A stretch of 64,000 bases of DNA, from positions 67,146,001 through 67,210,000 of the forward strand of contig OX597832.1 of assembly GCA_951406725.2 (NCBI GenBank). The letters run 5' to 3'. This stretch comes from Octopus vulgaris. Lineage: Eukaryota. Made by a program: the position numbers and the translations under genes. Below the pieces are notes generated by a model. That model did no database searches. It was not told the origin of the DNA and worked only from the letters and a program-made list of their open reading frames with translations. Shown one piece after another: positions 26,801 to 33,400 of this stretch (its first letter is position 1; each line of letters starts with the position of its first letter).

Positions 26801-27802
26801 ACACATATGAGTGTGTGTATGTATGTATGCATGTATGTATTAATGATCAGATATACACAACCAGACACACTTATTGTTTTCTGTATTGTTTTCTGTATAC
26901 ACACACACACACACACACACATATATATATATATATATATATATATATATATATATATATATATATATATATATATATATATATATATATATATATATAT
27001 ATATATATATATATATATATATAACATTAAATAGGTAAAAATGATATTTATCAATTAGAACTCAGTGGTCTAGCATATTTAAGAGTAAAATATTTATATA
27101 TATCAATTAAGGAAAGTGGTCAAATATTAAAGAAAGAATCCGAAGATTAAAATATTTATATATACCAATTAAAAGGACTGAACACGAAAAAGTGGACAGT
27201 CAACATGCTAGATATAGACGTCAAATCGCCATTCTCCACAAAAAGTCTATGTTCTCAGATCAAACTCAACACAAAACCAAAACAATAAACAAGTGAAAAA
27301 TATACGAAATAAATATTTACCCATGTACTAAAATCAGTTTCGGCTGTTATTTTCCGTAAGGAAAAGTGCAGCCATCATAGCATGGTATATAAAACGTAAG
27401 TTGCTGTTAAATTTGATACCGGTGCAAACGGCCTATTACATTGAAATATATTATCAATGTCTCTATTTTGGCGCGATGAGACCCGAGAAAACCAGCCTGC
27501 AGCTAATAGTTAGCAGCAGTTAATTTATCGGTTAGAGAACAAATATTTATATAACATTAAATTTAGGGTAAAAATTGATATTTATCAATTAGAACCAGTG
27601 GTCTAGCATATTAAAGAAAGAATCCGAAGATTAAAATATTTATATATACCAATTAAGGACTGAACACGAAAAAGTGGACAGTCAACATGCTAGATATAGA
27701 CGTCAAATCGCCATTCTCCACAAAAAGTCTATGTTCTCAGATCAAACTCAACACAAAACCAAAACAATAAACAAGTGAAAAATATAAGAAATAAATATTT
27801 AC

Positions 27803-27868
27803 CCATGTACTAAATTCAGTTTCGGCTGTTATTTTCCGCAAGGAAAAGTGCAGCCATCATCAGCATGG
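27803..27868 (-). ncRNA. Type I hammerhead ribozyme (inverted arm, intact core)
   Basis: Reverse complement: ccatg CTGATGA t ggctg...cagcc GAAA ctgaatttag TA catgg. Confidence 0.85.
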
Positions 27869-28319
27869 TCCCATATAAAATGTAATTTGCTGTACTAAAT
27901 GCCAACACGATACCGAAATATCGCGTGCATGGAGTACGGCCTATTACTTTGAAATATATATTTCAAATGTCTCTAATTTTGGCGCGATGAGAATGTGGAG
28001 AACGATTTGTCTATATCTAGCAATAATTGGTATATAAATATTTTAATCTTCGGATTCTTTCTTTAATATGCTAGACCACTGGTTCTAATTGATAAATTCA
28101 ATTTTTACCCTAAATTTAATGTTATATAAATATTTGTTCTCTAACCGATAAATTAACTGCTGCTAACTATTAGCTGCAGGCTAGTTTTCTCGGGTCTCAT
28201 CGCGCCAAAATTAGAGACATTTGAAATATATATTTCAAATGTAATAGGCCGTACTCCATGCACGCGATATTTCGGTATCGTGTTGGCATTTAGTACAGCA
28301 AATTACATTTTATATGGGA

Positions 28320-28385
28320 CCATGCTGATGATGGCTGCACTTTTCCTTGCGGAAAATAACAGCAGAAACTAAATTTAGTACATGG
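28320..28385 (+). ncRNA. Type I hammerhead ribozyme, unit 1 (stem II closing pair mutated; stem III perfect palindrome)
   Basis: ccatg CTGATGA t ggctg...cagca GAAA ctaaatttag TA catgg; predicted cut after 28380. Confidence 0.75.
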
Positions 28386-28830
28386 GTAAATATTTATTTC
28401 GTATATTTTTCACTTGTTTATTGTTTTGGTTTTGTGTTGAGTTTCATCTGAGAACATAGACTTTTTCTGGAGAATGGCGATTTGACGTCTATATCTAGCA
28501 TGTTGACTGTCCACTTTTCGTGTTCAGTCCTTAATTGGTATATATAAATATTTTAATCTTCGGATTCTTTCTTTAATATGCTAGACCACTGGTTCTAATT
28601 GATAAATATCAATTTTTACCTTAAATTTAATGTTATATAAATAGTTGTTCTCTAACCGATAAATTAACTGCTGCTAACTATTAGCTGCAGGCTGGTTTTC
28701 TCGGGTCTCATCGCGCCAAAATTAGAGACATTTGAAATATATATTTCAAATGTAATAGTCCGTACTCCATGCACGCGATATTTCGGTATCGTGTTGGCAT
28801 TTAGTACAGCAAATTACATTTTATATGGGA

Positions 28831-28896
28831 CCATGCTGATGATGGCTGCACTTTTCCTTGCGGAAAATAACAGCCGAAACTGAATTTAGTACATGG
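28831..28896 (+). ncRNA. Type I hammerhead ribozyme, unit 2
   Basis: ccatg CTGATGA t ggctg cac ttttcc ttgc ggaaaa taa cagcc GAAA ctgaatttag TA catgg; GUA cut after 28891. Confidence 0.88.
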
Positions 28897-29342: not shown

Positions 29343-29408
29343 CCATGCTGATGATGGCTGCACTTTTCCTTGCGGAAAATAACAGCCGAAACTGAATTTA
29401 GTACATGG
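29343..29408 (+). ncRNA. Type I hammerhead ribozyme, unit 3
   Basis: Same motif; cut after 29403. Confidence 0.88.
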
Positions 29409-29854
29409 GTAACTATTTATTTCGTATATTTTTCACTTGTTTATTGTTTTGGTTTTGTGTTGAGTTTCATCTGAGAACATAGACTTTTTCTGGAGAATGG
29501 CGATTTGACGTCTATATCTAGCATGTTGACTGTCCACTTTTTCGTGTTCAGTCCTTAATTGGTATGTATAAATATTTTAATCTTCGGATTCTTTCTTTAA
29601 TATGCTAGACCACTGGTTCTAATTGATAAATATCAATTTTTACCCTAAATTTAATGTTATATAAATATTTGTTCTCTAACCGATAAATTAACTGCTGCTA
29701 ACTATTAGCTGCAGGCTGGTTTTCTCGGGTCTCATCGCGCCAAAATTAGAGACATTTGAAATATATATTTCAAATGTAATAGGCCGTACTCCATGCACGC
29801 GATATTTCGGTATCGTGTTGGCATTTAGTACAGCAAATTACATTTTATATGGGA

Positions 29855-29920
29855 CCATGCTGATGATGGCTGCACTTTTCCTTGCGGAAAATAACAGCCG
29901 AAACTGAATTTAGTACATGG
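29855..29920 (+). ncRNA. Type I hammerhead ribozyme, unit 4
   Basis: Same motif; cut after 29915. Confidence 0.88.
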
Positions 29921-30366
29921 GTAAATATTTATTTCGTATATTTTTCACTTGTTTATTGTTTTGGTTTTGTGTTGAGTTTGATCTGAGAACATAGACTTTT
30001 TGTGGAGAATGGCGATTTGACGTCTATATCTAGCATGTTGACTGTCCACTTTTTCGTATTCAGTCCTTAATTGGTATATATAAATATTTTAATCTTCGGA
30101 TTCTTTCTTTAATATGCTAGACCACTGGTTCTAATTGATAAATATCAATTTTTACCCTAAATTTAACGTAATATAAATATTTGTTCTCTAACCGATAAAT
30201 TAACTGCTGCTAACTATTAGCTGCAGGCTGGTTTTCTCGGGTCTCATCGCGCCAAAATTAGAGACATTTGAAATATATATTCCAAATGTAATAGGCCGTA
30301 CTCCATGCACGCGATATTTCGGTATCGTGTTGGCATTTAGTACAGCAAATTACATTTTATATGGGA

Positions 30367-30432
30367 CCATGCTGATGATGGCTGCACTTTTCCTTGCGGA
30401 AAATAACAGCCGAAACTGAATTTAGTACATGG
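30367..30432 (+). ncRNA. Type I hammerhead ribozyme, unit 5
   Basis: Same motif; cut after 30427. Confidence 0.88.
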
Positions 30433-33400
30433 GTAAATATTTATTTCGTATATTTTTCACTTGTTTATTGTTTTGGTTTTGTGTTGAGTTTGATCTGAGA
30501 ACATAGACTTTTTGTGGAGAATGGCGATTTGACGTCTATATCTAGCATGTTGACTGTCCACTTTTTCGTGTTCAGTCCTTAATTGGTATATATATATATA
30601 TATATATATATATATATATATAGGATGAGTAGTGTCTATATGAGTAGTGTATATATATATTAATATACCAATATTTTTCTCAAGTGACCCAAAATATATT
30701 TAAGCAGAACTAAAATATTTCATATTTCACCTTTTTTTTTATATGTTTGTATCCAAACTATAACTGTCTTCAAGGTGCTTCTTAAGGTAACCAATACTAA
30801 ATTCATTATTTTACTTCTAAGTAGTATTATCCATTTATTTCAAGTAATTGTGTTAATTGGAAATTCAACAGAGAGACACAACTGAGAAAAGAATGAGAAA
30901 ACAAAGATTACCATTAAGTAATAAAGAAAGAAACAAACTGTTAGATGAGGAGGGGGAAAGAGTTGAAACTACGGAGATTGTTAGAGATTTTAGGGAAGAA
31001 ATATGAGTACTTTTAAGTTTAATTATATAAACCAAAGTTTTCAGTTTAGAGGGAATTTTTTTTCTCCCTTTTTTCATCTTTTTCCTTCACATACAGGAAA
31101 ATATATTGATGTATAATCGCTATCCTGCTCTCATGAAAATGAGAGAAGAAAGCCACCATAGTGACAAATATTGGAATACGTTACGATGTGTGTGTCATGG
31201 ACAACAAAGACACGCGTTTTTGTCATAAATTTACACGACAATAACATGTGATGATGCCTACAAACTATGGCAAATATCTAATACGAAGAGAAAAGTTGAA
31301 ATTGCAGTTATTTGCATATATATAATACATGTGTATGTTTGCCCCTAAGTACATACACATACATCCATACATCCATCCATACATACATACATACATATAT
31401 ATATATATATATATATATATATATATATATATATATATGTATGTATGTATATATATATATATATATACATGCATTTATATACCTCCACAAAACGTACACA
31501 TACACGCACATACACACACATATATATAGACTTATACATATATATTCAAACTTACAAATACATATGTTTTTATATGTATGATTGTGTGTGTGCGTGTGTG
31601 TGTATATGCGTGGATGTGCGTATTTATGTGATTGCGTGTATGTATATATATGTAATTACATAAGTATATAAAGGAATAGGCACTATTGATCGTAATGCGT
31701 ACACATTTTCAAATTTCATATTGTCATTAGTGGTTAATTAGTCATTCATCAGACATAGATATTCAATGTGATTTTGCCATGGTGTGTTAATTTTAAAAAT
31801 CATTTACAATAAAGGCATTGTGACTAAGGACAGTTCCGTGGAGCATAAATACTGATGGACGAAAACAAGTTATAATATCCATCTGTATATACACGAAAAT
31901 AAAAGAATTAATAAAAGGAAATGAAAAGAAAGCCACGTGATCATTGAATAAAAGCAAATAATATAAAATAATATAAAGGGAATAAAACTTGGTTGAAAGC
32001 TAGATGGGAGAGGGTGATAGTATGTAATGTGATAAAAAGAATGAAGGCAGAGGGTTAAAGGGGAAATACATTTAGTTAAATAAAAGTATGGTATGGGTGT
32101 GAAAGAGAAAATAATTGTTGAGCGCGGGAAGAAAATTCTTTAGATTTTCCGTTGACATTTTTCAGCTTCAATACAATCCGCTGTTATAGATAATAAGCAC
32201 ACCCTCACAAATAAACACATAAACGCCTACAGGTACACACACACGCTGGCACATATGCACACACACACACATATATATGCATATAACATACACAGATATG
32301 TAGATGCATACATATATACAGACTTGCATAAAAGAGAAAGTATCGACGAAGCACTGGAAGGAATGAAGGAATTTCCTTGAGCGAACAAAATGTTCCCGCT
32401 CTTCCTCTCTGTCACTCCCGTCCCTTTCCTTACGCACCCGTATTTCTTTTCACATATGAACAATGATTAAAACGCATAGGAGGGGGAGGCGTAACAAATA
32501 TCTGAAGATCCAAACACAAATGTGTGATCCCTCATAAAAAAAGTGTGATTATTATTTTGTTTTATTATTATTATTTTTTTAATGAAATTAGGTGCTTTAT
32601 AATTCAGAACTGGTACCGCAATAAAAAGCGATACAATTTGACATAGCCTCATTCTCCGTTGCCATAAAATGCTTTGAATATTTTGAAGGAGAGAAAAAGA
32701 AAATAGAAAGAAAAAAAGGTGCAAAAACAATGAAAATAAATAAATAAAACATTCTGAATAAAATGATCAATAGAGATTATCGGAACAAAAGACATATGAA
32801 CGATGTAGCAATTCCTGTAAATTTTTCTGTGAACACGACAACAACATGGAAATGAGTTGCTGATACAACAAACGTTTTACCACTATGGATTAGAAACGTT
32901 AGATTGTGATTCTTATTCAGTCGATTTAAATAACACAGCTTTGATATCACAACAATGCCTGCATCATGCATGTTTATTATTATTATTATTATTATTATTA
33001 TTATTATTATTATTATTACTATTATTATTATTATTATTATTATTATCATTATTATCATGATTGCCATCATCGTCCCCATCATCATCATCATCGTCATCAT
33101 AGCTGTTTTTGTTATTTCAATATTATTATTTTTTGTTATTTTTTGTTTTTGATGTTTCGCTTTTTAAGATTATTACACTATTTGTGATGAATTTGGTTTT
33201 TCCCCCTTTTTTTACTTTTCTTACGGCACTTGGATATTATGCATTTGGTTGATATATAAAATAAAATATATTAAAATATATTTATTTTGAATAATAGCTA
33301 ATACGAAGTCAAAAAAATAAAAAAATTCTAATAAATGTTATCTATAATTCTACTTTATATTAACATACCTTCCGGATATGATTCGCTAATAGATATAATT

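Follow-up and report, generated by a model that had tools for sequence, protein, structure and literature searches.

How animal retrozymes re-insert into genomes, and how Penelope-like elements (PLEs) form tandem and inverted structures with a tail on one side only, are both open questions in the literature. A PLE origin of retrozymes has already been argued in print (Cervera 2020, PMC7229834; Li 2026, 10.64898/2026.07.22.740005), and a tail has been described on one of two inverted pseudo-long terminal repeats (pLTRs) (Arkhipova 2013, PMC3846280). In vitro, a PLE protein cuts and extends both strands of its target and starts synthesis at two sites inside the RNA, one at each boundary of the tail (Frangieh 2024, PMC11167929). 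Here we describe an element of tandem, hammerhead-bearing 512-bp units at positions 27024–30586 of a 64,000-nucleotide stretch of the Octopus vulgaris genome (assembly GCA_951406725.2, contig OX597832.1, forward-strand positions 67,146,001 to 67,210,000). This whole stretch is called the window, and its coordinates are used throughout. The element is almost certainly one insertion of a dispersed, noncoding family of animal retrozymes without long terminal repeats (non-LTR retrozymes).

A further point of comparison is LINE-1 twin priming, in which both target strands prime and the inverted 5′ part of the element is joined by microhomology. In L1, one priming site is the poly(A) tail, and the other lies internally at a position that varies.

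Insertions End at Two Fixed Sites

Insertion ends were compared in a main sample of 92 distinct insertions, made up of the window element, 19 of the loci L001–L030 (11 repeats of the same insertion having been dropped), and L037–L108. Loci were chosen for best similarity or for an intact hammerhead, using the first 100 of 155 pattern matches. Two local duplicates, L013 and L014, were entered as separate insertions; 7.65 kb apart on G000:C6, they present one insertion with one flank twice, through local duplication or an uncollapsed assembly.

Across this sample, 3′ ends fall at unit position ∼160 (site A) or ∼255 (site B), 95 nt apart, and run into TA repeats. Two arms are present in 54 of the 92 insertions: 47 combine one A end with one B end, three combine A with a minor 3′-end site at unit position ∼230 (site C), one is a doubtful A+A pair, none is B+B, and three are irregular. 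The remaining 38 insertions are one-armed, with 31 ending at A, six at B, and one elsewhere. Against an expectation of 0.5, the A+B combination in 47 of 48 cases gives p = 1.7e-13. The sister subfamily has the same 95-nt spacing; among its 52 loci (nine duplicates dropped), 24 are two-armed, with 15 A+B, no A+A, no B+B, and nine irregular.

Sites A and B lie in weakly paired segments on either side of two conserved hairpins. In the sister RNA, B is not marked by a UA tract, yet both ends are kept; thus, the two sites appear to be set by position. Base-pairing between a (UA)n stretch of the RNA and the target was rejected as the determinant of priming on the same ground. In the 92 loci, an (AU)4 tract at unit positions 358–365 never forms a 3′ end, although this tract is predicted to be paired.

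The arms run across the ribozyme cut site. In the main sample this is a product of selection, but in sister loci that were selected through a motif close to A, arms also span the cut site in 8 of 23. Such arms imply a template that was a circle, an uncut multimer, or a set of monomers between which the enzyme jumped. Overall, the insertions show a head-to-head inversion, a tail on one end, and a microsatellite target. Because this anatomy is specific to PLEs, it supports mobilization in trans by a PLE, which we consider very probable. The first-pass annotation of the window had proposed the same source of mobilization, and the insertion anatomy now provides stronger support than it could offer.

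The Window Element Has Two Head-to-Head Arms

Along the window element, the order is (TA)n, inverted arm, junction, direct arm, (TA)n. The left target microsatellite (26921..27023, no strand) has 51.5 copies by TRF, and the right one (30587..30622, no strand) has 18. The inverted arm (27024..27992, minus strand) comprises ∼1.9 units, starts at unit position 327, and has its 3′ end at fixed site B (∼27025); it carries local deletions and one small duplication. Two hammerheads lie within it on the minus strand. One is degenerate (27321..27385, nominal cut 27326), lacks core G5, and is predicted to be inactive, and the other is an intact type I hammerhead (27803..27868, predicted cut 27808). The head-to-head junction (27993..28023, 31 nt, no strand) joins unit position 327 through ATG to unit position ∼87, followed by short deletions. 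Beyond it, the direct arm (28024..30586, plus strand) extends for 5.0 unit lengths to a 3′ end at fixed site A (30586).

The direct arm carries five plus-strand type I hammerheads, at 28320..28385, 28831..28896, 29343..29408, 29855..29920, and 30367..30432. Their predicted cuts after GUA fall after 28380, 28891, 29403, 29915, and 30427, respectively, with spacings of 511/512/512/512. GUA is among the natural hammerhead cut triplets (PMC1636495). These places, cuts, and spacings reproduce those of the first-pass annotation, which had read the whole region as a simple head-to-tail array of five near-identical units without an open reading frame (ORF). Near identity and the lack of an ORF are borne out as well: the units are 97.3–98.0% identical to a reference unit, and the longest frame is 71 aa when merely stop-free and 25 aa when begun with ATG. 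The simple array is not, since 27024–27992 is an inverted arm whose two hammerheads had been missed. The count of five units fits the length of the direct arm, but only four units, at 28381–30427, are complete from cut to cut. Stems I, II, and III fold as had been described, except in hammerhead 1, where CAGCA replaces CAGCC and so disrupts the basal pair of stem II.

The 95-nt segment from A to B, equivalent to the Penelope-type “tail,” recurs in every unit (for example, 30074..30169, plus strand); within it, between the putative priming sites, lie two hairpins, one of them a conserved UUCG hairpin. The left arm and 30 nt past the junction bear deletions that are unique among copies, with 40 differences in one unit. 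In two contig sets of unknown kind, 27026–27099 and 27359–27432 were uncovered at 98% likeness and the junction was unbridged, which proves nothing.

A Dispersed, Noncoding Family

Searching the genome with the unit yielded 1,236 candidates; 40 of these were scored. Exact patterns matched 155 times for the hammerhead, 996 times for a motif of the sister lineage, and 1,797 times for an interior motif, and reversed controls matched 0 times each. The 155 and 1,797 matches place the family far beyond chance, and the genome-wide copies that the first-pass annotation had suggested looking for prove to be a dispersed family. Subfamilies with 512-, ∼505-, and ∼505-bp units share 91–99% identity with the window unit, and an older sister lineage with a 524- to 543-bp unit shares 72–85%. 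In the youngest subfamily, many arrays contain four to five near-identical units per insertion at unrelated sites.

The family is noncoding and low in GC and has no LTR. Four consecutive intact motifs in the window, together with many multiunit loci, agree with the definition used by Li 2026, namely, at least two tandem units with complete type I hammerheads. The identification as a retrozyme is therefore upheld, and the family is a new one within the known class of animal non-LTR retrozymes. No published account of it was found in the literature on octopus and cephalopod retrozymes and hammerheads; supplementary family lists, which lay outside this search, could include relatives.

Folded as a circle, the unit reaches −130.3 kcal/mol, vs. 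−100.0 ± 5.9 kcal/mol in shuffled sequences (z = −5.1; 0 of 40 shuffles as good). In a consensus fold of 15 units, 13 of 114 pairs change on both sides. Portions of the family are present in three contig sets presumed to derive from RNA, and some of these contigs span the cut site, although assembled contigs do not reveal RNA ends, strand, or circularity. No excess was found for a footprint of adenosine-to-inosine editing, with 29 A>G and 49 T>C changes (p = 0.49).

The Hammerhead Is Conserved as a Structure

The motif has the core CUGANGA...GAAA...UH and three stems with stem I open, as in type I hammerheads. Computed folding yields stems I, II, and III, with z = −2.65 for the common motif and 2 of 200 shuffles as good. 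Stem II is long and in two parts. Stem III, a palindrome of 12 nt, includes two G-U pairs and is the region through which two copies cofold, so cleavage as a dimer may be possible. Every hammerhead motif has an atypical extra U between A9 and stem II. Hammerheads may tolerate insertions of this kind after A9.

Of the cells of stems I and III in 17 sequences, 99.3% are paired, compared with 7–39% in slid controls, and two pairs of these stems show double-sided changes, behind which lie few independent events. Stem II variants, read by eye, are GGCUG/CAGCC, GGUUG/CAACC, and CUUG/CAAG. In the sister lineage, the sequence of stem II differs while its two-part shape is kept. The hammerheads of the family are predicted from sequence to self-cleave after GUA into ∼512-nt monomers.

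Other hammerheads occur in the loci retrieved. L031–L036 (near 5000) represent a family with a short stem II and a stem III almost identical to that of the window; L031 has it head to head, and a Poseidon-like GIY-YIG fragment lies nearby in L034. Many more type I hammerhead-like motifs with palindromic stem III lie in random flanks (L005, L015, L024, L038, L049, L056, L079, L112, L136, L141, and L172). A hammerhead-like pair 494 bp apart (L095:224 and 718) probably belongs to another retrozyme family.

Junctions and Arms Within Single Insertions

Among 47 head-to-head junctions, 25 show overlap or microhomology, five are blunt, and 17 have short inserts, some of which are effects of alignment register. 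Arms of one insertion are closer to each other than to the median other locus in 26 of 35 cases (p = 0.003). Ten single-nucleotide variants (SNVs) that are private to one insertion, found at seven loci, occur in every covering segment of both arms.

A Hydra-Type PLE in the Same Genome

The genome also holds a young PLE of the Hydra type, with dozens of near-identical open 717-aa frames (L140:2440–4590, minus strand; also L139 and L141–L148). The frame has RWK, DKT, CxCx5C, CxxC, and CxH motifs, as defined for Hydra (Craig 2021, PMC8557442), and its 2.59-kb (2,590-bp) unit occurs in tandem; Pfam gave no match for the 717-aa protein. Its insertions lie in (TA)n and have two ends separated by ∼73 nt; at 36 loci, 18 of 18 head-to-head pairs use one of each end. 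A variant hammerhead core (CCGAAGA ... UGAAA) is located just upstream of its first fixed end.

An older Hydra-like family (L213–L227) has two ends ∼70 nt apart and a hammerhead whose stem III, CCAAUGG, is that of several sister-lineage retrozyme copies; it has no other homology to the retrozyme unit. At L243, an apparent link between the unit and a PLE was rejected as mere nesting in one TA tract. In the window itself, the ORF list gives two overlapping frames of 339 and 331 aa at 21474–23370 (minus strand), which belong to a non-LTR retrotransposon reverse transcriptase split by a TA microsatellite. Pieces of another non-LTR element lie at 46281–47601 (plus strand), and we take its C-terminal region, by its motif, to resemble a restriction-like endonuclease.

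Discussion

Our best explanation of these observations as a whole, to which we give an even chance of being correct, is that a retrozyme RNA, likely circular, is copied into (TA)n from both cut ends by a PLE enzyme. In this scheme, the retrozyme RNA would self-cleave into ∼512-nt monomers and likely circularize. A Penelope-like (probably Hydra-type) reverse transcriptase/endonuclease, supplied in trans, would cut both strands of a (TA)n tract, and of the two 3′ ends set free, one would prime at site A and its counterpart at site B, which lies 95 nt downstream of A along the RNA. Synthesis of either cDNA would pass the ribozyme junction, often several times, and the cDNAs would end at variable points, to be joined through microhomology into head-to-head arms. 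Duplication or conversion at the DNA level probably reshapes some arrays later, the window array included. Two-ended priming is, in our judgment, a likely component of this scheme, and the circle is the usual template by a slight preference.

A broader proposal, which we put forward tentatively, is that Penelope-type integration is obligately two-ended and asymmetric. One complex would hold a small circular ribozyme RNA, start one strand at A and the other at B, and roll from both, with RNA structure, not pairing to the target, determining the sites. If true, this would explain the tail, the inverted pLTRs, and the retrozyme tandems together, and a 512-nt noncoding RNA would be the minimal substrate.

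Several observations weigh against copying from a circle by a PLE. In vitro, ribozyme cleavage was unnecessary for PLE insertion, and the start sites did not differ between strands (Frangieh 2024, PMC11167929); cleavage was seen in only 1 of 9 predicted retrozyme dimers (Li 2026). The Rfam hammerhead models, a check that the first-pass annotation had suggested, gave no match to the motif at gathering score or E ≤ 10, perhaps because of the long stem II and the extra U. Nor did the suggested link to a coding PLE by DNA homology materialize: no coding element with such homology to the retrozyme unit was present in the 30, 30, and 9 loci of three Hydra-like families (one young, two older), a search confined to top-scoring candidates that left out Neptune, Naiad, and Poseidon. 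Eleven private SNVs at seven loci are present in only some units, some of them being specific to one arm (L068 and L070) or absent from the terminal partial unit (L005, L009, and L026), a distribution that one circle does not predict. In the window, the four direct units differ by 6–14 nt, with variants shared in a mosaic pattern, and the arms differ by 13, vs. 8.9 for the median other locus. The window junction (27981–28002) and its arm-specific alleles also recur at one unrelated locus, L058 (G000:C31:3723868–3724917; junction at G000:C31:3724307), and at no third locus genome-wide. L058 corresponds to the inner core of the window element; a variant private to L058 occurs in both of its arms and is absent from the window. 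It was rejected as an allelic copy, since its flanks are unrelated. A shared junction between unrelated flanks suggests that at least one of the two was probably copied together with its junction, by way of a read-through transcript or at the DNA level. A clean single-circle origin of the window locus is therefore weakened by its mosaic units and inherited junction, and assembly error may add to the noise among its units.

The pair formed by the window and L058 also speaks for a different usual template. The same two-site PLE priming could act mainly on linear read-through RNA transcribed from a parent array and left uncut, with unit number changing mostly through tandem duplication at the DNA level and circles arising as a side product; we consider this possible, if doubtful. 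Step-like and arm-specific variants within arrays fit it, as does the tandem arrangement of the autonomous PLE in 2.59-kb units, and unprocessed RNA was the dominant substrate of the Anolis PLE in vitro (PMC11167929). However, inheritance of a junction is confined to these two loci, and the youngest subfamily presents many arrays of four to five near-identical units at unrelated sites. The strong and conserved circular fold and a ribozyme conserved with compensatory changes also speak for the circle.

Alternatively, the inverted arm could arise by fold-back self-priming on a single (antisense) template, as proposed for rotifer Penelope elements, where fold-back was inferred from palindromes at inverted junctions (Arkhipova 2013, PMC3846280). 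This route likewise predicts similar arms, and both 5′ ends do lie at one unit position in 4 of the 47 junctions, but the other 43 join unrelated unit positions, mostly via short microhomology, and the constant pairing of one A with one B outer end would be left unexplained, which makes fold-back improbable. Finally, unique deletions in the left arm and just past the junction, and unusually mosaic direct units, mean that the unit count and odd stretches may be partly assembly error, but we regard it as very improbable that the array and inversion are a long-read assembly artifact or a satellite that was amplified locally and resembles a ribozyme by chance. The same two-arm, fixed-end anatomy is found in dozens of places spread over many contigs and is shared by two retrozyme lineages and a coding PLE; A and B ends joined to TA also appear in contigs from independent runs, and the hammerhead covaries.

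The class, its length range, and its connection with PLEs are already in print; what is added here is a counted PLE footprint on a retrozyme, which was not found in the literature searched, and an inherited junction. The family provides genomic evidence for a retrozyme inserted with PLE-specific anatomy and supplies a rule that can be counted, namely, that each insertion pairs an A end with a B end. It also offers a short RNA whose two start sites are mapped and whose hairpins are conserved, in a genome that also encodes a young, intact enzyme of the Hydra type. With both at hand, the mechanism is directly testable in the published in vitro system.

It is useful to contrast this family with the systems introduced at the outset. 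Unlike in LINE-1 twin priming, its two sites both lie inside the unit at fixed positions, and either arm can be a multimer. Metazoan non-LTR retrozymes (PMC7229834; 10.64898/2026.07.22.740005) share with it tandem noncoding units that each carry a single type I hammerhead, low GC, absence of an LTR, a highly self-paired predicted circle, and coexistence with PLEs. The unit had been thought unusually long, but 512 bp lies inside the 51- to 972-bp range of family consensus lengths in Li et al. 2026. One octopus subfamily even has the U-U mismatch at the base of stem II seen in axolotl HHR_Amex2. The octopus family differs from these retrozymes in its long two-part stem II, its extra U after A9, and its head-to-head, two-arm (TA)n insertions with two fixed ends. 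Such insertions are undescribed in the available text of these sources: the word “inverted” has 0 occurrences in that of PMC7229834, and no paper combining retrozyme, head-to-head, and microsatellite turned up in the search. In Xenopus, 24 of 57 families match known transposable elements, nearly all of them PLEs, whereas the octopus family had no coding PLE with pLTR homology in the loci examined.

Endonuclease-bearing (EN+) PLEs of the Hydra clade (PMC8557442, PMC3846280, PMC11167929) are another close system. Unlike these elements, the retrozyme family has no ORF, and its tail of 95 nt compares with a published 30–40 nt for PLEs and with 73 nt in the octopus Hydra element. The pairing of ends is a near-absolute one of each as counted in octopus, whereas a strand difference in start sites was not seen in vitro (PMC11167929). 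Common to both are partial tandems, an inverted 5′-truncated copy placed head to head, a tail at a single end of the inverted pair, two start sites inside the RNA, (TA)n targets, and a type I hammerhead with a palindromic stem III.

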